A DNA stretch of 64,000 nt from a virus. The DNA lies in the IMG/VR virus record IMGVR_UViG_3300022927_001391, positions 1-64,000 of that record; one strand, 5' to 3'. Made by a program: the position numbers and the translations under genes. How positions within the stretch are numbered: position 1 is the stretch's first letter; every line of letters begins with the position of its first letter. The notes beneath the pieces were generated by a model, which saw nothing but the letters and a program-made list of their open reading frames with translations, searched no databases and was not told the DNA's origin. Shown here piece after piece: positions 12,732 through 27,492 of the stretch.

Positions 12732-13586
12732 ATGGATTACTATGAAACTTTAGGTGTAAAGCCCACCGCCACTGATGATGAGATCAAGAGTGCCTTTAGA
12801 TTAAAAGCAAAGGAGTATCATCCTGATCGTGGCGGTGATAAGGCTAAGTTTCAGCAAATTAATGAAGCTTATGATACACTAAAGGATAATAGTAAACGAA
12901 AGCAATATGATTATACACGCAGTGGTGCAAGACATAACAATTTCCACTTTAACATAAATGGACAGGACTTTAGTGGTGATCAATTTGGAGATGTCTTCGC
13001 TGACTTACACAGTGTATTTGGAGATCGTTTCGGATTTAGAAAAGCCAGACACCCAGGTCGTAATAAAGATCTCAATGTAACAGTTGAACTAGAATTACGA
13101 GATTTAATTAATATAGTAAAAAAGACTTTAAGTATAAGACACACTACCGGTGAACGGAAACTTGTAGACATTACGCTACCTCCTGGTGCAGAAAATAATA
13201 CAACAATGCGCTACAGAGGTTTAGGCGATAGTGCTATACCTAATTTGCCGCCTGGTGATCTATTTGTGGGTGTAAGAATTAACCCCGAGCGAAACTTCGT
13301 TGCTCAAGGATTTAATCTTATGACAACTGCTACTATTGATGCCTTTATGGCAATGGTAGGTGGCAAGATATTAGTAAAAACAATCGATGGTAAAAATATA
13401 AGTTTAACAATACCAGAAGGTACACAGTACGGAACTGTAATGAGTGTGCCGGGATATGGATTACTTGATAAGTCAGGAATACGAGCAAATATGCTTGTAC
13501 AGATATTAGTTAAAATTCCTGAGAACCTAACTCAGGATCGGTTAAATACAATTAGAAGAATGATGGGAGTTAACATTGAAGTTTAG
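12732..13586 (+). CDS. dnaJ: DnaJ/CbpA-type co-chaperone
   Basis: J domain DYYETLG...HPD; C-terminal DnaJ_C domain; no Zn finger. Confidence 0.9.
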   Translation: MDYYETLGVKPTATDDEIKSAFRLKAKEYHPDRGGDKAKFQQINEAYDTLKDNSKRKQYDYTRSGARHNNFHFNINGQDFSGDQFGDVFADLHSVFGDRFGFRKARHPGRNKDLNVTVELELRDLINIVKKTLSIRHTTGERKLVDITLPPGAENNTTMRYRGLGDSAIPNLPPGDLFVGVRINPERNFVAQGFNLMTTATIDAFMAMVGGKILVKTIDGKNISLTIPEGTQYGTVMSVPGYGLLDKSGIRANMLVQILVKIPENLTQDRLNTIRRMMGVNIEV

Positions 13587-15861
13587 TAAAGACATAGAAA
13601 AAATTGTTGAGGCAGCTACCAACTACGCATTTGCTAACAAAAGCAAATATGTTATGAGCGAACATCTACTATTGGCTTTACTTGATAATAAAAATTTTTA
13701 CAAAATATTAGTTGAGTATGGCATTGAAGCAGAAGCATTCCATAATGACGTCAAAGACTATGTAGCAAATAAAATCATAAAGCAGCATGGACTTGTACCT
13801 AACGCCATTATAAAAACTCAGGTTATAGAACGTATATTTAACCGCGCCTACACACAAGTATTGTTTAGTGGCAGAGATAAACTAACATCTTTCGACCTCT
13901 TTATTAGCATAATGGGTGAGAATAACACCCATAGCAATTACTTTATTATGAAGTATGGCGTTAGTAAAGAAGAATTTATTACATTTGTACAAAACTATTT
14001 GAGTAAAGCACAAAACAATGCTGAGAAACGCAACTATTATGCTAATGTACTAGAGGAATATTGTACTAATCTAAATGTACTTGCTAAAGACAACAAGATT
14101 GATCCTGTAATTGGCAGAGAAGATGAGCTAGATGAGATTTGTCAGACTTTTGCTAAACGCAATAAGAGCAATGTTTTGCTTGTGGGTGATCCTGGTGTAG
14201 GTAAAACAGCAATTGCTGAGGGACTTGCCAAACGTGTTGTGGATGGGCAGGTACCCAAATATCTCAAAGGATATAAAGTTTTTAATCTTGAGGTAGGAAC
14301 ATTACTTGCTGGTACACAGTATAGAGGCCAGTTTGAAGAGCGAGTTAAGGAAGTTATCGAGGCTCTAACTGAAACAGAGAAATGTATTCTGTTTATTGAC
14401 GAAGCTCATACAATGGCAGGAGCCGGTGCTGGCGGAAATGGCGGTACTGACTTTGCCAATATGCTGAAGCCTGCATTGGGCAAAGGAAAACTTAAAGTTA
14501 TAGCCAGTACTACCTGGGAAGAATATACCAAGAGCTTTGAAAAAGACCGCGCACTAATGCGCCGCTTCTATCGTATTACTGTGGATGAACCCACAGCAGA
14601 AGTTGCCAAAAAAATATTGCTGGCAACGAAACCCTACTATGAAAAGTTCCATTCAGCCACTATTATGCCGGAAGCAATCATCAGCGCAGTTGATTTGAGT
14701 ATTCGTTATCAGGCTGATAAAAGATTACCAGATAAGGCATTTGATTTAGTAGATAGTGCTTGTGCTAGACAGCGCAGATTGGAAGTAATAAATCCGGTTA
14801 TTACAAAAGACAGTATTAAGCTAGAAATTAGCAAGAGTACTAATATTCCACTGGACAGTTTGGAAACCAAAGATGCTCCCATAACAAATGTTATGGAGAT
14901 CGAGGATAAGATTAAAGCTAAACTGTATGGACAGGATAGTGCTGTAGAAACTGTGATGGAACATGTTTATGTTAGCAAGGCTGGGCTTAGTGCTAGTGAT
15001 AAACCAGTGGGTAGTTTTGTGTTTATTGGACCTACTGGTACTGGTAAGACTGAACTTGCTAAACAACTTGCTGAAAATTTAAGCATGAAACTACTGCGCT
15101 ATGACATGAGCGAATATCAGGAAAAACACAGTGTTGCTCGTTTTATTGGTGCTCCCCCGGGATATGTGGGCTATGAGGACAGTAATTTGAGTGGTGGGTT
15201 GTTGATTAAAGATATCGAACGCAAACCACATAGTGTTATCCTGTTTGACGAAATCGAGAAGGCACATCCTGATGTAAGCAATGTTCTGTTACAGATGCTA
15301 GACGAGGGATATATCACAAGCAGTAATGGCAAACGAGCAGATGCTCGAAACTGTATCATAATTATGACTACCAACCTGGGTGCTGAAATGGCCGAACGTA
15401 ATACTATTGGTTTTGGTAGTCTGGAAAGAACTGGCGAGGAAGAAGCAGCCTTTAAGGAATTCTTCCGTCCGGAGTTCCGTAATCGTATATCAGGTGTTTG
15501 TAAGTTCAACAAGCTAGACGATCTGAGCAAGCGCAAGGTTGTTATGAAGTTTATCAAATCTCTTGAAGCACAGTTACAAGAAAAAAGTATTCGTATTATT
15601 GTAAATGAACAAGCAATTGACAAGCTCATTGAGATTGGTTACGATGACAAAATGGGAGCAAGGCCCTTGGATAGGTGTATCAACAAATACTTGCGAGTAC
15701 CTATTAGTAGACAAATATTGGTTGACAAAAACTTATCTAATAGTAAAATAAAGATAGGAGTTGAGGGTTCAAACTTTATCATAATATTTAGGAACAGTAA
15801 TGTCGACACAACCAAAGAAGACCCATCCGCCGGAAGTACAAGAATTAGCGTCCCAGTATAA
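13576..15861 (+). CDS. clpA: ClpA-like AAA+ unfoldase
   Basis: Clp N domain, two Walker A motifs ([16 protein letters not shown]), IGF ClpP-docking loop, no ClpB M-domain. Confidence 0.85.
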
Positions 15862-19488: not shown

Positions 19489-19933
19489 TTTAAAGTTAGT
19501 ATTAACAGGAACAGGTTGGGAAGATCACTGGCCAAGCTGTAGAGTATCTGTCAATGACACTGAATTCTACAACAATGAGATTATTGGCGAGCAGACAGTT
19601 GAGTTTGATTTAGATTTACAAGATGATAGTGAAAATGTTTTAAAAGTAGAATACTATAACTTAGACTTCCGTAAAGATATAGTACTAAATGACTCAGGCG
19701 AACAAATTAAAAGCAAATATGTTACAATTAATAAGTTATTTGTTGACGACATAGATTGTTGTAATATTCCCTACGATTTAAGCGAAGTATATGTAAATGA
19801 CGGTTGGTATACAAAACAGGATCCACAAGATTTTCCCAATCCACGTAAGAATGAAATGCAATTAAGCTGGAATAGCACCTGGTGTTTAAAGTTTAATAGT
19901 CCAGTCTATCTGTGGTTATTAGAAAACTTATAA
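19475..19933 (+). CDS. Hypothetical protein
   Basis: ORF overlapping upstream gene. Confidence 0.6.
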   Translation: METVNLKLVLTGTGWEDHWPSCRVSVNDTEFYNNEIIGEQTVEFDLDLQDDSENVLKVEYYNLDFRKDIVLNDSGEQIKSKYVTINKLFVDDIDCCNIPYDLSEVYVNDGWYTKQDPQDFPNPRKNEMQLSWNSTWCLKFNSPVYLWLLENL

Positions 19934-19936
19934 ATA
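19929..19936 (+). promoter_or_regulatory. T4-type late promoter TATAAATA
   Basis: Exact motif 4 nt before ATG 19941. Confidence 0.65.
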
Positions 19937-19940
19937 TGGT

Positions 19941-22900
19941 ATGCGTATTACAGAAGCAATCCAGCAAGTCGTAGCAATATATCCCGGGCGTTTTCACCCT
20001 TTCCACAAGGGTCACGCCAGTGTATATGGCTATCTTAAACAGAAATATGGCAGTGCTTATGTAGCAACAAGTAATAAAGTAGATCCACCCAAGAGTCCTT
20101 TTAGTTTCCCAGAAAAACGTGCAATGATGTTACATGCTGGTATTCCCAGTGATAGAATTGTACAAACAAAGAACCCCTATAAAGCAGAAGAGATACTAGA
20201 TTGGTACAATCCCGAAACAACAGCAGTAGTGTTTGCTGTTAGTGCCAAGGACATGGCTGATAATCCACGCTTTAGTTTTGCGCCCAAGAAGGACGGATCA
20301 GCCAGCTATTTCCAACCATTAGCTGGGCAAAAGAATTTAGAACCATTTAGTAAACATGCTTATATTGAAGTCGCACCAACTTTAGACTTTAAAGTCTTGG
20401 CTGAACCCATGCGCAGTGCTACAGAGTTACGCAAGAAATTTGCGCAGGCTGACACTGATACACAAAAGGATATAATAACAGATCTATATGGAACCTATAA
20501 TGCTCGTATTCACAGTATTATGGCCAATAAGATTAATGAAGCGTACTTGAAGTTTGAAGACTTACATAATATTATATTAGAGTTGTGGCGTTTAGACGTT
20601 GCTAAACCACTAGCAGAAGACGTAAAAGCTAAAATTATTGAACAAGTGCAGACAGCTAGAGAAGCCTGGCACAAAAAATACAAGCGCAATAAAAAAGTAC
20701 AGGAAGGTGATCTAATTCCATTTCCTGACAATACTATTGTCCTACAAACAACAAGTGATGAGGACTGGTATGAGCTGGGTAAAGACATTGCTAATTTAAG
20801 CAAAGCAGAAAAAGCAGAGTACGGACATGATGACTCTGATACACTAATGGTACTACCAGCACCTCTAGAAAAATATATTAAGGACAGAATAAAAAAGTTT
20901 ACTGGTTTGAAGTTCAAAGATACTAAACATCATGACAGTTACGAGTTAGCTGATATTGCTCACAAAGTATCAGAAGAAGATCAGCAACGCATTATTGAAA
21001 AGATTAGATCTCTTACTGAAACAATACGTAAGACTGGTAGTCAGTATACTGTTTACAGTAAAAAGGGTAAGCGCATGGGCACTTATCCAAGTAAAAAACA
21101 GGCTAAAGAACGTCTTAGACAGATTGAATACTTCAAGCATGTAAACGAAGCATTTGACAGTCCTTATCCACTAGTATGGGAAGGCAATCCAAATGGAGAT
21201 TCATCTGCTCTTGCTGAAATACCTACATCCAACGGCAACACTGCTTATTTGGATATAGAATTTAACACGTCAGGTGATAGTGGTCGTTTTGATATTAGCT
21301 TCACAAGAAATAGTAGAAGCAAAGCAGCAGGCACGGGCGATGAGTTTAGAGTTTTTGCTACAGTAATAGAAGCCATAAAGCAATGGTGGAATAAAGTTGA
21401 CCAGGATCGGGTTGTTAGTATAACTTTTAGTGCAGCAAAAAATACTAACGATAGTGCGATGTACCGTGGCGCTCCTGATAGTCCTCGTAGACACATACTC
21501 TATTCAAGATTTGCCAAACAATTTGCTAAACAAATTGGGTTTAAACTAAACATAGAAGATTTAGGTACTGGGGTTTATTTTTTCCTTACTAATCCAAAGA
21601 GCCTGTCAGATAATAAATTGGAGGAAGCATTTGACACCAAAGTTGAATGGGTCAAAGAGCTCGGACCAAGTGGGTCAACTGTATATGCTACTAAAGTAGA
21701 AGATGCTTATATAGAACTAACCTACAGGCCTGTGAGTAAGGGTGTATACATCAGTTTTACTCGTGGCGGTGTTATGAGTGTTACAGGTGAAGGTTCGCAA
21801 AATAAAATCTTTGGCGCTGTTATCAATCATATCAAACAATGGGCAGCAAAAAATAAACCAGAACAGATTATGTTTAGTGCCTTTAAACCTCGCACAGGCG
21901 CCTTTGGAAGTCAGGACAGTACTCGCAGTGGATTGTATCGCAAAATGGTACAACGCTTTGCTAACCAAAATGGTTATGAGTATGATGTAGAAGACACTGG
22001 AAACGAAGACACTTTTATTCTTAAAAGACAAGGTGTGGCGGAAGGTAAGAAAACAAACAAAGCATTTGTTAAACCACAGTTTGATGTAGAATGGGAAGAA
22101 GCAGCTCGCTATCCAGAGTTTCAAAAGATTGGCAAGGATGCCTGGATTGAACTTGCTAAGAAGGGCAAGTCAGTTACCATTAAAAGTGCTAAAGGTATTA
22201 ACAATACAGATGCCGCAGATCCTGATAGTTTTAAATCATTAGAACCAGAAAAACAAAAACGAGCTCTAGCACAACTAGAAAAAGGCACAGTTGAAATGCC
22301 CATTGTTGCTGTATACAGTGATGGCTACAAAGAATTAATTGGCGGCAATACAAGACTTACTGCTATGATGGCTAGAGACGGTAAGGCAACTGTGTGGGCA
22401 TTTAAAGTGCCAGACGAAGTTGCTAAACTAGCAGAAAACTTTGCGGAAGGTAAGAGTCCACATAAAAAAGGCACTAAGAAATACAAGGCACATATGGCAG
22501 CAATGCATGCTGGTATGAATGAAAGCTATAAACTACAACTAGAACGTGACGATGATCTACTCGTACTACACATTAAAGACACAAAGACTGGAAAGCGCAC
22601 TGAAGTAAGAGGAAAGCCCAACTACGAGGGCGATGGTTATGATGCCACAGATCCATTGCATCAACTCTTGGATAAGGTTGGCAAAGCAGCGAACATAAGT
22701 GAGCTTATGAATGGCGAGGTAGTAAGCATTAATCCACGTCATCCAGATGGACCACGTGCTAGAAAACATGCTGACAAGGCATTTAATGAAGACGTTGCCA
22801 AAGACTTAGAAGCAGAGTTTCCGGGTTTATACTTAGACTTATATAAAACAAAAGCAGGTTACATACTTGGCAAAATAGAACTACCTAAAGAAGAACGTGG

Positions 22901-23726
22901 TGAGGGCATTGGTACCCGAGTCATGCAACGAATCGTTGACATAGCAGACAGTGAAGGTGAAGTTGTTGCACTAACGCCCGATACAGCATTTGGTGCTAGC
23001 AGTAAAGGCAGACTCGAAAAGTTCTACAAGCGTTTTGGTTTCGTATTCAACAAAGGACGCAACAAAGATTATAGTTTTAGAGAAACAATGATTCGCTATC
23101 CTCAGGGCCCTCAAGCACGAGCAACAGTAAAAGATATAGCAGGCGAATCCATAGTTGAAATGGCCAAAAAGGTTCCAGGTGAACCTGGGTCCTATACAAT
23201 GAAACAGGGTAAAACAGAATATAAAATATCACCACAATTGAATAGTAATGATCGACCATCTGGTGAGTGGCAAATTTATGTGAAGGACAGAGGCGATTGG
23301 GAATGGGACAGGACAGTTGGTAGTAAAAGAGATGCTATTAATTGGATCAAAACCCAAAAAGACGAATCCATAAACGAAGCAGGTGTTGGGCGTATTACAA
23401 AACAGAACGCAACCAAAGACGCACCAATTGGTAGTGAGTTTGCAAATGTTAAGAAGCTAGGGTTGGGCAGTGGTAAGCCCAAAGAGCTACATGCTAAAGC
23501 AAGAAAGAATTCAGATCCCAATACACTATTCAATTTAGGTATTGGAGAATCTAAAGAACAAGAATTAGATGAAAGAGGCAGCATTACAGTACCATTTGCC
23601 AGTGGAACAAGTGTTACTATTGCGCCACATCGACCATTACGAGTTAAAAAGTCCACTAAAGGGAGACTACGTTATGAAAACCCTACAGCCAACACAAATA
23701 AATCTAAACGAGGAAAAACAGTATGA
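19941..23726 (+). CDS. Multi-module putative virion polyprotein: HIGH nucleotidyltransferase, two paralogous domains, ParB-like domain, GNAT and small modules
   Basis: YPGRFHPFHKGH; MPIV..ELIGGNTRL; ERGEGIGT..LEKFYKRFGF; modules separated by hydrophobic-x-E linkers. Confidence 0.75.
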   Translation: MRITEAIQQVVAIYPGRFHPFHKGHASVYGYLKQKYGSAYVATSNKVDPPKSPFSFPEKRAMMLHAGIPSDRIVQTKNPYKAEEILDWYNPETTAVVFAVSAKDMADNPRFSFAPKKDGSASYFQPLAGQKNLEPFSKHAYIEVAPTLDFKVLAEPMRSATELRKKFAQADTDTQKDIITDLYGTYNARIHSIMANKINEAYLKFEDLHNIILELWRLDVAKPLAEDVKAKIIEQVQTAREAWHKKYKRNKKVQEGDLIPFPDNTIVLQTTSDEDWYELGKDIANLSKAEKAEYGHDDSDTLMVLPAPLEKYIKDRIKKFTGLKFKDTKHHDSYELADIAHKVSEEDQQRIIEKIRSLTETIRKTGSQYTVYSKKGKRMGTYPSKKQAKERLRQIEYFKHVNEAFDSPYPLVWEGNPNGDSSALAEIPTSNGNTAYLDIEFNTSGDSGRFDISFTRNSRSKAAGTGDEFRVFATVIEAIKQWWNKVDQDRVVSITFSAAKNTNDSAMYRGAPDSPRRHILYSRFAKQFAKQIGFKLNIEDLGTGVYFFLTNPKSLSDNKLEEAFDTKVEWVKELGPSGSTVYATKVEDAYIELTYRPVSKGVYISFTRGGVMSVTGEGSQNKIFGAVINHIKQWAAKNKPEQIMFSAFKPRTGAFGSQDSTRSGLYRKMVQRFANQNGYEYDVEDTGNEDTFILKRQGVAEGKKTNKAFVKPQFDVEWEEAARYPEFQKIGKDAWIELAKKGKSVTIKSAKGINNTDAADPDSFKSLEPEKQKRALAQLEKGTVEMPIVAVYSDGYKELIGGNTRLTAMMARDGKATVWAFKVPDEVAKLAENFAEGKSPHKKGTKKYKAHMAAMHAGMNESYKLQLERDDDLLVLHIKDTKTGKRTEVRGKPNYEGDGYDATDPLHQLLDKVGKAANISELMNGEVVSINPRHPDGPRARKHADKAFNEDVAKDLEAEFPGLYLDLYKTKAGYILGKIELPKEERGEGIGTRVMQRIVDIADSEGEVVALTPDTAFGASSKGRLEKFYKRFGFVFNKGRNKDYSFRETMIRYPQGPQARATVKDIAGESIVEMAKKVPGEPGSYTMKQGKTEYKISPQLNSNDRPSGEWQIYVKDRGDWEWDRTVGSKRDAINWIKTQKDESINEAGVGRITKQNATKDAPIGSEFANVKKLGLGSGKPKELHAKARKNSDPNTLFNLGIGESKEQELDERGSITVPFASGTSVTIAPHRPLRVKKSTKGRLRYENPTANTNKSKRGKTV

Positions 23727-24000
23727 TGAACACTTACAGCGTTGTATTAAAGAACTTGAACAAATTGTGGAGGATCTCACAGGGTCAGAAAAACCAGGTA
23801 GTCGTCCAGGTAGTTTAAAACGGAAAGCAGCGCAGTATTTGGGCAAAGGAGCCGGAGAAGAACTAACTAGAACAGAACTAAAGCAGTTACGTGCCAAGGC
23901 AAACAAGATGAAAAAGTCCACCAAAAAGGACGAACGCGATCGTGGTATACAACTAGCTAGGCAAGTTAGTTTTGCTTTTAATATGCGAGATAGCAAATGA
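23674..24000 (+). CDS. Basic putative head-internal protein
   Basis: ATG 23674 after GGAG; LNEE and IVED motifs then Lys/Arg-rich region. Confidence 0.55.
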   Translation: MKTLQPTQINLNEEKQYDEHLQRCIKELEQIVEDLTGSEKPGSRPGSLKRKAAQYLGKGAGEELTRTELKQLRAKANKMKKSTKKDERDRGIQLARQVSFAFNMRDSK

Positions 24001-24233
24001 AACTTAACTTTGATATCAAATGTAGTGATTACACGAACACACCAGCGTACAGAGTATTTGTAAATGGTGAACTCATGCTTGAACGTGATTTTGTGATACC
24101 CAACGACGAGTTCAGTCACTATAACTTTACTGGATTTATTGATAGTGAAACAGCAAATATACAAGTTGAGAGCGTTACACCAGGCATTACATTTACATAC
24201 GACAATGTGAGATTGACCAATGAGAGCGAATGA
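23997..24233 (+). CDS. Hypothetical protein
   Basis: ATGA-coupled ORF. Confidence 0.55.
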   Translation: MKLNFDIKCSDYTNTPAYRVFVNGELMLERDFVIPNDEFSHYNFTGFIDSETANIQVESVTPGITFTYDNVRLTNESE

Positions 24234-24417
24234 ATTTATTAAAGAAACAGCAAGTGCTGGTGCTACCACAAGCGGAAATATTGCTGTAGTAGTAAATCCA
24301 GCAGTTGCTCGCAGTAAGAAAAAAGCAAAGAGTGTGAGTGCTTTGGATACAAACTATAGTTTGTTTGGCGCTGGTATGATCAAGCGCAATCCTAAAAAGC
24401 CGCTAGCCGCATTATAG
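24220..24417 (+). CDS. Small putative head-internal protein
   Basis: MRANEFIKE-TASAGATT, capsid-targeting-like N-terminus. Confidence 0.55.
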   Translation: MRANEFIKETASAGATTSGNIAVVVNPAVARSKKKAKSVSALDTNYSLFGAGMIKRNPKKPLAAL

Positions 24418-24451
24418 CATAAATATAATATATGTTTTTGAGGTTTTAACT

Positions 24452-24847
24452 ATGAATGATATTGCTAATACACGCAAAAAATTAAAACAGATTGCTGAAG
24501 GCAGCTTGGGCGATATGGCCAATCGCTGCGAAACAGATCACGAAGTTCAAATGGCACGTGCAGATCTATACAAGATCGGCAAGTACGCAATTGAGCTACA
24601 CGATATGCTTCGTAACGTAAGCGAAGAACAGGGATTAGAAGGCTGGGTACAATCTAAGATCACCAAGGCAGCAGATTACATGGGCAGTGTTAAGCATCAT
24701 CTCGAGTATGAGATGAGCGGAATGAATTCTGACAATCAGGAAGCGATGCCAGCAGATGCATTAGATGCACTTGAATCTACAGAAGCAGACCAAAACAAAA
24801 AGAATATGAAAGCCGAAAGTAAATTTAGCGATTGGAGTAAGAAATGA
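24452..24847 (+). CDS. Putative head-internal protein
   Basis: IAEG site; LEGWVQSKITKAADY..VKHHLEYE; CATAAATA upstream. Confidence 0.6.
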   Translation: MNDIANTRKKLKQIAEGSLGDMANRCETDHEVQMARADLYKIGKYAIELHDMLRNVSEEQGLEGWVQSKITKAADYMGSVKHHLEYEMSGMNSDNQEAMPADALDALESTEADQNKKNMKAESKFSDWSKK

Positions 24848-25449
24848 GCGATTTTTCAGACCTAGTAAAAAAACTAAATGCAATCTCAAATAACGAGGAA
24901 ACAGTAAGTGCAACAGGCGATACTGTTTATAAGCCAGTTGAGGAAGCAGTCGCTGGAACACGTGAAACAGCAAGTATTCTCAAAGCGTTTAATGAACTTG
25001 AAGAAGCAGCAAAGCCAGACTATATTGATTTAGATGGCGATGGCGATAAAGAAGAATCCATGAAGAAGGCTGCCGCTGACAAGAAAGCCAAGAAGGAATC
25101 TGTAGCTGAAGACAAAGCTAACGAAGATGTGCTAGGTGATATTGCTAGTCGATATCGTGACTTTATGAAGAGTGAAGTAGCACAGGGTAATGATCTAACC
25201 ACAGTTGATAGCGCAGTTAAAGAAGCCACAAGTTCTGCAACAGCAATCGATGATAGTTTTCAAAAGATGTTTAATATGATGGGCCGTCTTATGAACGTTA
25301 CAGCAGAAGGTGCAGTGCTTAGTAAAATGGTAGAACGTGAAGGTGGTGATGCTGCATGGATTGCAGATGCACATCAAAAACTAATTGAAGCTATGGAAGC
25401 TCTAGAAGAAGCACATATGTATAGCAACCCACCAGGGGAAGATGACTAA
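24844..25449 (+). CDS. Acidic prohead core/scaffold-like protein
   Basis: Many xxE sites; DLDGDGD EF-hand-like motif. Confidence 0.55.
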   Translation: MSDFSDLVKKLNAISNNEETVSATGDTVYKPVEEAVAGTRETASILKAFNELEEAAKPDYIDLDGDGDKEESMKKAAADKKAKKESVAEDKANEDVLGDIASRYRDFMKSEVAQGNDLTTVDSAVKEATSSATAIDDSFQKMFNMMGRLMNVTAEGAVLSKMVEREGGDAAWIADAHQKLIEAMEALEEAHMYSNPPGEDD

Positions 25450-25454
25450 TTATT

Positions 25455-25646
25455 ATGCGTTCCTCAGAATTTATTTCAAAAGCAATTACTGAGGCTGAGT
25501 TTGATGAAGCAGCCGGCGAAAAGGATGCCTGCTATCATAAAGTAAAATCACGTTACAAAGTTTGGCCAAGCGCATATGCTAGCGGTGCACTTGTAAAGTG
25601 TCGCAAGGTTGGCGCAGCTAACTGGGGCAATAAGAGTAAAAAGTAA
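25455..25646 (+). CDS. Small basic putative head-internal protein
   Basis: MRSSEFISKAITE-A; KDACYHKVKSRYKVWPSAYASGALVKCRK. Confidence 0.6.
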   Translation: MRSSEFISKAITEAEFDEAAGEKDACYHKVKSRYKVWPSAYASGALVKCRKVGAANWGNKSKK

Positions 25647-26056
25647 TGCGGGTCCACGAGTTTACAACCAACGAAGATCTACGCAAGTGGTTTAAGGACA
25701 AATGGGTTCGTTTCGGTCCTGATGGTAAAATTCGTGGCGACTGTGCTAGGGATAGTAATAGTGAAGGCAAGCCCAAGTGCTTACCACAAAGTAAAGCACA
25801 TGCACTGGGCAAAAAGAAGCGTGCTACAGCAGCAGGCCGCAAGCGTAGAGAAGATCCTAATAAAAATCGTAAGGGTGCAGCAAAGAACGTTGCTACCGAA
25901 GGCCCAATTGGTAAAGCAGTTGGTGCTACAGTAGGTGCGGTTACTGGCACAGCAGTAGGTACAGTAGGTGCCGCAGTGACAGGAAAACCAAGTAAGATAT
26001 ATAAGGGTGCTAAAAAAGGTGCCAAGCTAGGTAAAAAAGCACTAGGGTGGGCATAA
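25646..26056 (+). CDS. Basic putative head-internal protein with glycine-zipper tail
   Basis: MRVHEFTTNE-DLRKWFKDKWV; GAVTG repeats after a TEG site. Confidence 0.6.
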   Translation: MRVHEFTTNEDLRKWFKDKWVRFGPDGKIRGDCARDSNSEGKPKCLPQSKAHALGKKKRATAAGRKRREDPNKNRKGAAKNVATEGPIGKAVGATVGAVTGTAVGTVGAAVTGKPSKIYKGAKKGAKLGKKALGWA

Positions 26057-26901
26057 TGAGATTTACTGAATTTGATTTAACTCCAGCGCAACGGGCTATT
26101 AGAGAACACATTAAGCGTGGCGTTCCTTTTAGTGAATGCATGTTCCGTCCCGGTAGTGAAGCATTTACAGAGTTTTATACTCGTGTACGTGAGATGCGTG
26201 AAAATCTTGACCTAGACTGGCAGGATGCTGAACTACTTGATACAAACATTGGTGAATGCATTATGGTAGAGGGCGAGAGTGTTCCTCTTGATGTTCCTAT
26301 AGAAGAGATACCAGATGATGCGGTATCCGACAGTGATCCTTTTAACGATGTTGCAAGAAAAGAAATGAAACAAATGATTGCAACTCGATTAAATGACTTG
26401 GCGCCTGTAGAGCGACAGGTAGTTTTATTAAGATATTGGGAAGATATGTCAGTAAAAGAAATAGGCGAATACACTGGGTTAGGAACAAGACTTGCAAAAT
26501 CTAATCTAACCAAAGCTCTTCATAAAATGTATAAAAATTGGGGTAAGGGCAAACACAGCGTAAATTTAAGGCAACTTATACAAAAAGAGTCTGTTGACAT
26601 TGACGAAGCAGAGTACCAGGGACGCAAAGTTAAACTAAACTCACCCAAGCGTGGTGGTCCTAAGAAGTTCTATGTATACACTAAGAATGACAAGGGTAAT
26701 GTTATTAAAGTAGCATTTGGTGCAAAGGATGGTGGCGGCAATCTTGCAGTTAAACTAAAAGATCCTAAAGCACGTAGAGCATTTGCTGACAGACATAACT
26801 GCGAGAAAAAGAACGATAAAACCAAGCCAGGTTATTGGGCTTGCCGGTTGCCACGTTACGCAAAGTCGCTCGGACTGAGTGGTGGTGGTACCTGGTGGTA
26901 A
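26056..26901 (+). CDS. Putative head-internal protein with inserted sigma70 region-4-like HTH
   Basis: LNDLAPVERQVVLLRYWEDMSVKEIGEYTG between acidic N-terminal and basic EAEYQGRKVKL C-terminal modules. Confidence 0.65.
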   Translation: MRFTEFDLTPAQRAIREHIKRGVPFSECMFRPGSEAFTEFYTRVREMRENLDLDWQDAELLDTNIGECIMVEGESVPLDVPIEEIPDDAVSDSDPFNDVARKEMKQMIATRLNDLAPVERQVVLLRYWEDMSVKEIGEYTGLGTRLAKSNLTKALHKMYKNWGKGKHSVNLRQLIQKESVDIDEAEYQGRKVKLNSPKRGGPKKFYVYTKNDKGNVIKVAFGAKDGGGNLAVKLKDPKARRAFADRHNCEKKNDKTKPGYWACRLPRYAKSLGLSGGGTWW

Positions 26902-27164
26902 AGCCCTATACTGAAACTCGTAATAATAACGTAATTATAAGACGTTTCTCCGCAGACATTAATAGTGAAGAACTAGTCTGGCACAGAGATCATTCTGATC
27001 GTTATATAAGTATAATTGAAGGTACAGGCTGGCGCTTACAAATGGATAACCGGTTGCCTATGATATTGGAGCCCGGTGATAGTTTGCCTATCCCTAAAAA
27101 TACCTATCACAGAGTATTAGCCGGCAGTACAGACCTACTAGTAGAGATAGTAGAGTATAAATAG
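26895..27164 (+). CDS. Cupin-domain protein
   Basis: ELVWHRD...IPKNTYHRV. Confidence 0.7.
   Translation: MVKPYTETRNNNVIIRRFSADINSEELVWHRDHSDRYISIIEGTGWRLQMDNRLPMILEPGDSLPIPKNTYHRVLAGSTDLLVEIVEYK
27156..27163 (+). promoter_or_regulatory. T4-type late promoter TATAAATA
   Basis: Exact motif upstream of 27181. Confidence 0.6.
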
Positions 27165-27180
27165 TATAGAGGGTAATACA

Positions 27181-27492
27181 ATGCGAGCAGATCTTATTCG
27201 TCAGACACTATCACTACTAGAAGAAGTAGGCATGGAGTATGTAGCAGGCCGTGACTTTAACAAAGTCATGGATTTAGCTGATTACACACTAGGTTCCTTC
27301 TCACACGATGAGCCAGATGTTCGTAAGGTGGATTATGAAGTATTCCAAAAGACACGCGATGGTGGTTTTGAATATAACGATAAATTTTATCCTCAGGAAT
27401 TCTACAAGAAGGTAGCTGATCTCAAACTCAGCCCCTATGTAAAACCACAAGAAGCCGTCGAAGCTTTCAAAGCCTGGGTAGCAGCCCATTAA
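27181..27492 (+). CDS. Hypothetical protein (possible head-internal)
   Basis: MRADLIRQTLSLLEE leader. Confidence 0.55.
   Translation: MRADLIRQTLSLLEEVGMEYVAGRDFNKVMDLADYTLGSFSHDEPDVRKVDYEVFQKTRDGGFEYNDKFYPQEFYKKVADLKLSPYVKPQEAVEAFKAWVAAH

Follow-up and report, generated by a model that had tools for sequence, protein, structure and literature searches.

A mosaic polyprotein of a giant marine phage with prohead-protease-type sites at its module joints

The first 64,000 nucleotides of the IMG/VR virus record IMGVR_UViG_3300022927_001391 (hereafter, the window) contain a stop-free open reading frame (ORF) of 1261 aa at 19941..23726 on the + strand, on which all modules described below are encoded. 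The ORF encodes a polyprotein of some 13 unrelated modules, joined at sites that read hydrophobic residue, any residue, Glu (h-x-E), the type cleaved by prohead proteases, and comparison with its relatives shows that homology breaks at these sites. The initial annotation of this DNA had proposed both the polyprotein and the swapping of modules at its joints, and this proposal passed all sequence-level tests; the ORF, the 12 linker tetrapeptides (INEA, VQEG, LTET, VNEA, LEEA, VAEG, FAEG, MNES, FNED, IVEM, INEA and LDER) and four DNA repeats were all located where it had placed them. By analogy with phage T4, the protein is probably a late-made precursor of capsid cargo that would be cut by a gp21-type protease and ejected in pieces together with the DNA.

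The window is the first part of a 105-kb viral contig with a CheckV completeness of 29%, so that the phage genome is likely to measure about 360 kb. The family-B DNA polymerase of the contig is nearest, at 43–50% identity, to those of T4-superfamily jumbo phages (Phosso, Atu_ph07 and phages of Yersinia, Erwinia, Xanthomonas and Escherichia), and the source phage is a giant marine relative of T4 that has not been cultured. An identical 1261-aa protein is also on record from a separate 7.9-kb contig. Megablast of the polyprotein gene against 50,697 phage records returned no match; at the protein level, the matches to cultured phages were confined to single modules.

Mosaic relatives and breakpoints at h-x-E sites

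Relatives were collected by a scan of viral contigs (57 loci), a word-indexed protein search (263 proteins of 693–2207 aa) and an exhaustive search with residues 256–1261, which returned 4540 cluster representatives of 164–1884 aa at E ≤ 1e-3. As predicted, their domain content is not fixed. Both the content and the order of modules (M1 to M13 in the query) differ, with 152 arrangements of the query's modules among 256 related proteins. Query modules occur in other orders and beside foreign ones, including lysozyme, chitinase, canonical ParB, sigma region 4, deoxyribonucleotidase, zeta-type kinase, superoxide dismutase and a poly(A)-polymerase-type transferase. One orthologue, 88% identical, is without exactly residues 951–1143, and the same phage has M11 in a different gene; M11 sits in a separate ORF in the related loci L002 and L009. 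M9 is the query module commonest among relatives and occurs without M10 beside it in 134 viral loci, M7 was found in 79 of 160 relatives, and M1 is N-terminal in all 23 relatives that carry it. Wherever M13 occurs in relatives, x-x-E stands just before it, and the module is C-terminal in 33 of its 73 occurrences.

Of 770 internal homology ends, 355 (46%) are no more than 6 residues away from one of the 12 named sites, whose share of the sequence is 12.4%; random placement, drawn 5000 times, gave a mean of 95 and a maximum of 331 (p < 2e-4). Support for the proposed junctions extended to 11 of the 12 sites. Counts ranged from 14 homology ends at site 200, 19 at about 255, 33 at 403 and 36 at 701 to 52 at each of the two sites carried by the end of M7, LAE/N (832) and FAE/G (836; the slash marks the putative cut), and to 91 and 75, respectively, at the M12 sites IGE/S (1203) and LDE/R (1211). 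The remaining site, LTE/T at 360, drew no homology end in the query's set of relatives and is unsupported in this set; in another family member, the module after M3 is preceded by a different h-x-E. Three extra sites (832, 921 and 1203) emerged from the homology ends themselves, and other h-x-E tripeptides within modules drew almost none. The bare motif [LIVMF]xE is only mildly enriched in the query (28 observed versus 20.9 expected, p ~0.05), and [LIVMF]xE[AG], a pattern chosen post hoc, was counted 10 times versus 3.3 expected (p ~5e-4); the breakpoint support, which is decisive, does not depend on these counts.

For the family as a whole, we analysed junctions at which a segment at least 65% identical between two proteins gives way to unrelated flanks. 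These high-identity junctions replaced a raw logo of BLAST ends from all high-scoring segment pairs, which was too noisy (Glu in 18% of last aligned residues versus a background of 6.7%). The last three shared residues read [LIVMFYW]-x-E at 36% of 671 distinct right junctions compared with 6.8 ± 0.9% at random, and h-x-E was present in both unrelated upstream partners at 25.7% of left junctions compared with 0.8%. A second set of 137 more proteins, itself chosen by similarity to the query protein, pointed in the same direction more weakly (right, 24% versus 6.7%; left, 15.8% versus 0.8%). The same module end can precede very different neighbours: the tail ...LFNLG-h-x-E stands before at least 8 different modules in relatives, and the ends of the ParB-like module and of M9 behave alike. 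The junction logo shows L>V>I>F at P3, N/A/T/S at P2, E at P1 and A/S/G/N/D at P1′. It fits the rule of the T4 gp21 prohead protease, which cuts after Glu in L/I-x-E (PMC9026906); related giant-phage proteases likewise cleave after Glu (PMC5694885).

Leaders, late-type promoter motif and the cargo-precursor model

The polyprotein begins with a capsid-targeting-sequence-like leader, MRITE/A (19941..19955). An h-x-E lies inside the first 16 residues of 173 of 197 distinct family N-termini (88%), compared with 25% of internal 16-mers and 23% of the contig's other ORFs. These leaders directly precede whichever module is first, as in M-R-A-x-E-F-I-x-E and M-K-I-x-D-I-L-V-E, and many of them read M-[KR]-x-x-E-F-I-x-E. 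At the level of sequence, they resemble the capsid-targeting sequence (CTS) of T4, MKTYQEFIAE (PMC8442874). In vibriophages of the KVP40 group, the tandem genes KVP40.0115 and KVP40.0116, as well as VPHD485_0152 of phage D485, encode a leader M-K-F-S-E-Y-Q...h-x-E followed by an M5-like domain. Vibrio phage 6E35.1a is another cultured candidate carrier of leader-bearing homologues. The family is large, and because it reaches these cultured phages it is open to bench tests. The annotated start of KVP40.0116 (L145, KVP40 67469-68353) lies 11 codons upstream of the M-K-F-S-E-Y-Q leader, and this internal leader matches the starts of KVP40.0115 and of the D485 homologue; the true start of KVP40.0116 is probably the internal Met.

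Upstream of the polyprotein gene, at 19929..19936 (+), lies the T4-late-promoter-like motif TATAAATA, which is the consensus of T4 late promoters and here ends 4 nt before the ATG. The 105-kb contig holds nine copies, every one 12–37 nt upstream of an ORF start; those in the window are at 535, 5972, 7514, 12318, 19929, 27156 and 32266, and among the genes that follow a copy are one for a virion structural protein (6004) and one for an Rz-like spanin (7541). Loci L002 and L010 have the motif at the equivalent position upstream of the orthologous gene, and L003 has CATAAATA there. From this placement, TATAAATA is likely to be a T4-type late promoter in this jumbo clade. A gp21-type protease (Peptidase_S77) is encoded by three related records, G001 (87% complete), G005 and G007 (100% complete). 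In G001, the genes for the protease, a Glu-rich scaffold and a gp23-type capsid protein sit together, and the capsid protein has L-S-E/A ahead of its conserved core.

We propose that the gene is transcribed late and translated as a single 1261-residue chain headed by a short T4-CTS-like leader. All steps after translation, from targeting and cleavage to retention and ejection, are inferred by analogy with T4 Alt and internal proteins, and the part assigned to each module is likewise inferred. On this model, the leader would direct the chain to the prohead's scaffolding core, where a gp21-type (S77) protease would cleave it behind the Glu of about 15 h-x-E sites. Cutting would free several short basic peptides and about nine folded domains, which include an adenylyl/cytidylyltransferase, a ParB/sulfiredoxin (Srx)-fold domain and a GNAT-like acetyltransferase. 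These pieces would remain associated with the DNA inside the capsid and be delivered to the host along with it, to serve in host takeover or against defence systems. With a cut site of its own, each module could be gained, lost, copied or relocated in frame while its neighbours stay intact, which fits the extreme mosaicism of the family. Its cargo-like content also backs the proposal, given the lysozyme, chitinase, ParB, kinase and nucleotidase modules of relatives and the sharing of M10 with DarB-like antirestriction proteins.

Several observations weigh against a packaged and cleaved precursor. In the second set, 10% of relatives' junctions are h-x-D, with Asp replacing Glu, and Asp at this position blocks processing in T4 (PMC9026906). 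In the AlphaFold model of M9, site 921 lies within the folded unit. The query leader places just 5 residues ahead of an enzyme fold, compared with 10 in the T4 CTS, and the mRNA would be nearly leaderless because TATAAATA ends so close to the ATG. The polyprotein gene lies outside any head-gene cluster, the family proteins share kinship, so that the counts are not fully independent, and no proteomic or biochemical record was found for this phage or its relatives. Neither an S77 protease nor a gp23 capsid gene was found in the 105-kb contig, an absence that is uninformative because the contig covers only 29% of the expected genome; another eight large related contigs are incomplete as well.

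The protein could instead act uncleaved, as a polyvalent protein in which a single multi-domain effector, packaged or not, carries h-x-E at domain ends or in structural linkers such as helix caps. Polyvalent proteins with 2–15 domains are known and some of them, the N4 virion RNA polymerase for one, are packaged unprocessed (PMC5512222), and in our models the LAE site of M7 lies at the end of a C-terminal helix and site 921 inside folded M9. However, the junction motif is retained regardless of the modules on either side, it agrees with the cleavage preference of the protease family encoded by this lineage, and it also follows N-terminal leaders, which a domain-capping role cannot explain; we therefore consider an uncleaved effector rather unlikely. 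Processing might also take place outside the capsid, with another phage or host protease cutting the chain in the cytoplasm and unpackaged products acting during infection. An AAA+ 'ATP-dependent protease' gene (13576-15861) is indeed located 4 kb upstream, and the neighbours of the polyprotein gene are non-structural genes. Yet AAA+ proteases are not site-specific, the leader is capsid-targeting-like, the promoter motif is late-type, and the junctions carry the motif of S77 prohead proteases, enzymes that are active inside proheads (PMC9026906), all of which makes cytoplasmic processing quite improbable.

The initial annotation had further suggested that the cleavage-site codons double as DNA microhomology for in-frame exchange. 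Taken to its extreme, the junction codons would mainly be a recombination signal that drives cassette exchange, with the peptide motif as a by-product. The four repeat pairs (21147/21624, 22038/22443, 23144/23363 and 21142/23371) are present with every spacing in phase, and several modules are flanked by such exact repeats. One 13-nt repeat (copies 21147-21159 and 21624-21636, +) encodes E-A-F-D at the homologous starts of M5 and M6, and this pair is due to paralogy; another flanks M7 (22038-22050 and 22443-22455, +) and encodes A-E-G-K at two junctions. All 13-mers other than that at the M5/M6 starts encode recurrent junction peptides. Measured against synonymous-codon shuffles, the expected excess of repeats held for in-phase 10-mers (31 versus 14; 0 of 300 shuffles as high) but hardly for exact 13-mers (3 versus 0.85, p ~0.08). 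Identity across the query's 16 junctions is slightly raised (mean run 3.65 versus 2.86 ± 0.36 in the shuffles, p ~0.03), and the Glu codon is GAA at 15 of the 16 compared with 78% overall. By contrast, silent-site conservation, scored as same-codon use in codon alignments and corrected for amino-acid type, was not consistently higher towards the ends of M7 (13 sequences) and M9 (30) than in their interiors, and relatives with only 40–50% identity still share the motif as a peptide sequence. With weak repeats and flat silent sites, microhomology as the driver of exchange was not established; it is the weakest part of the earlier reading, and we give a primarily DNA-level signal very little credence. 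Breakpoints at the sites need no DNA-level mechanism, because selection for intact, separately releasable modules suffices. Ribosome skipping of the 2A type was dropped as a candidate, the junction peptides being unlike that motif, which is not known to operate in bacteria.

Modules along the chain and neighbouring genes

M1 (residues 6-200, 19956..20540, end INE/A) is a HIGH-motif adenylyl/cytidylyltransferase, as had been called, with PF01467 at 26.2 bits versus a cut-off of 21 and TIGR00125 at 30.4 versus 27.7. Its motif, HPFHKGH, is of the H-x-G-H type, and there is weak similarity to nicotinamide mononucleotide (NMN) adenylyltransferases, whose models score far under their cut-offs. M2 (201-255, 20541..20705, end VQE/G), for which a profile search found no family match, is followed by M3 (256-360, 20706..21020, end LTE/T) and by the 43-aa basic peptide M4 (361-403, 21021..21149, end VNE/A; phrog_3684 and phrog_2859). 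The next two modules, M5 (404-562, 21150..21626, end LEE/A; phrog_6387) and M6 (563-701, 21627..22043, end VAE/G), are the paralogous domains A and B recognized in the initial annotation, with 31% identity at E=1e-14; M5 has weak DUF6934-type relatives that are exclusively viral.

M7 (702-836, 22044..22448) carries a GGNTR motif and had been called ParB-like. This call is supported at the fold level, because every leading structural match is to ParB, Noc, PadC, KorB or sulfiredoxin. The AlphaFold model, built with 15 homologues, has a predicted local distance difference test score (pLDDT) of 86 and a predicted template modelling score (pTM) of 0.80, and its top 30 Foldseek matches are nearly all ParB/Noc/PadC/KorB/Srx/SbnI (probability up to 0.99, E 8e-3, TM ~0.4). 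Profile-level matches are weak, with PF02195 at E=0.011 in 4 of the 15 members, a PDB ParB at E=0.48 and no Pfam match for M7 of the query protein itself; in the alignment, N-T-R-L is invariant in all 15 homologues, inside G-x-N-T-R-L.

M8 (837-861, 22449..22523, end MNE/S) is a 25-aa basic peptide. A 23-residue basic peptide that starts with GKSPHKKG (residues 836-858) recurs with 100% identity in many otherwise unlike contigs of marine phages, where it often forms the C-terminal end of a short ORF (loci L026-L058), and this conservation suggests a very constrained partner. M9 (862-950, 22524..22790, end FNE/D, with an internal ISE/L at 921) is modelled as a small alpha/beta unit (pLDDT 87), for which neither Foldseek on PDB and BFVD nor VIA-align against 48,161 chains (Z ≤ 3.5) gave a clear fold match.

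For M10 (951-1073, 22791..23159, end IVE/M), the GNAT-like acetyltransferase call is weak, with Pfam scores below the cut-offs (PF13508, 23.6 bits versus 27; PF00583, 19.6 versus 20.7). Relatives carry precomputed GNAT matches, the module matches the giant profile phrog_10691 (3925 positions) at E=4e-30, and it is 42–49% identical to a domain in phage proteins annotated as DarB-like antirestriction. The chain ends with M11 (1074-1146, 23160..23378, end INE/A), M12 (1147-1211, 23379..23573), which bears the conserved tail ...LFNLG-h-x-E, and the basic C-terminal module M13 (1212-1261, 23574..23723). The tail of M9 (22704-22790) and the start of M13 (23574-23660) have a common short pattern, G-x-x-V-x-I-x-P-x-H/R-P, and BLAST aligns both across relatives; the pattern may be a recurring short element.

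Pfam and NCBIfam run on single modules returned no match for M2-M9 and M11-M13, and Atlas look-ups for M5 and M12-M13 yielded viral hypothetical proteins only. Apart from the modules characterized above, most are short and basic and match no known family. A peptidase family was not found in any module with Pfam, PHROGs or NCBIfam, several of the modules having no recognized fold.

Small genes downstream of the polyprotein gene also have leader-type starts, namely MRANEFIKE/T at 24220, MRSSEFISKAITE/A at 25455, MRVHEF at 25646 and MRFTEF at 26056. Four or five small genes within 24220-27492 share such starts, and several genes there are stand-alone forms of modules that are fused in polyproteins elsewhere; the region looks like a cargo-gene zone. 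The N- and C-terminal parts of a sigma-region-4-like 284-aa protein (26047-26901) are common to a 492-aa ORF in locus L009. Because the L009 ORF has M11 inserted between these two parts, the gene at 26047-26901 belongs to the same mosaic pool. In another frame, a 143-aa ORF (23569-24000) without a family match shares 158 nt with the 3′ end of the polyprotein gene; the upstream portion of this ORF is probably non-coding. The upstream AAA+ gene encodes a 761-aa protein (13576-15861) with two AAA+ regions and a match to phrog_4871 'ATP-dependent protease' at E=1e-233, which is unusual phage cargo.

Implications and comparison with known systems

We lean towards the view, with some reserve, that T4-superfamily phages, above all marine jumbos, possess a large plug-in capsid-cargo system. 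It would comprise thousands of clusters that draw on a shared pool of modules bounded by cut sites and led by an address peptide, so that one gene could inject re-assorted enzymes along with ultra-conserved basic peptides. If the polyprotein is indeed cut and packaged, it shows how large phages widen and re-assort the proteins that they inject with their DNA, with the protease site as a standard connector that makes a cargo cassette of any small protein. The combination of a leader with h-x-E joints would then be a sequence rule for spotting injected anti-defence or host-takeover proteins in uncultured phages, and most proteins picked up by this rule are without known function. It would also provide a natural model for single constructs that load several proteins into T4-type capsids, and would join two known ideas, T4 internal proteins and polyvalent proteins. 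Full-text literature searches found no description of such a combination.

The closest parallel in presumed mechanism is provided by IPI, IPII, IPIII and Alt of T4. These proteins likewise have a short N-terminal leader that ends in hydrophobic-x-Glu, an L/I-x-E motif and a gp21-type protease in the lineage, and they are diverse, non-essential-looking cargo thought to act on entry. The payloads behind the common leader vary greatly among related phages (PMC9026906, PMC12373910, PMC3012670). However, T4 cargo is encoded by separate genes, with the internal proteins cut once beside the leader and Alt also at its C-terminus, whereas here about 13 modules occupy one frame with a putative site at every joint. 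Beyond the leader pattern, there is no sequence similarity to the T4 cargo proteins.

The phiKZ-like giants (phiKZ, 201phi2-1 and SPN3US) also have a gp21-related protease that cuts after Glu at a short motif. Many of their head proteins are cut, some at several sites, and the host receives the ejected cargo (PMC5694885). Position P3 of their motif is occupied by a small residue (A/S/G-x-E) instead of the hydrophobic one seen here, and they belong to a different phage lineage. In most cases, cutting takes off a propeptide and does not part unrelated modules.

In content, the family is matched by polyvalent proteins, which combine many unrelated effector domains, ParB/Srx and GNAT included, in one phage polypeptide, show extreme mosaicism and are proposed to be delivered with the DNA (PMC5512222); M10 is shared with their DarB-like antirestriction members. 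Processing of polyvalent proteins by an internal peptidase domain (MPTase), which is frequent but not universal, has been proposed (PMC5512222). By contrast, no internal peptidase was detected here, and the joints carry the motif of a separate prohead protease behind a CTS-like leader. In its presumed mechanism, the family would resemble the T4 internal-protein/Alt system, and its content places it among the polyvalent proteins.

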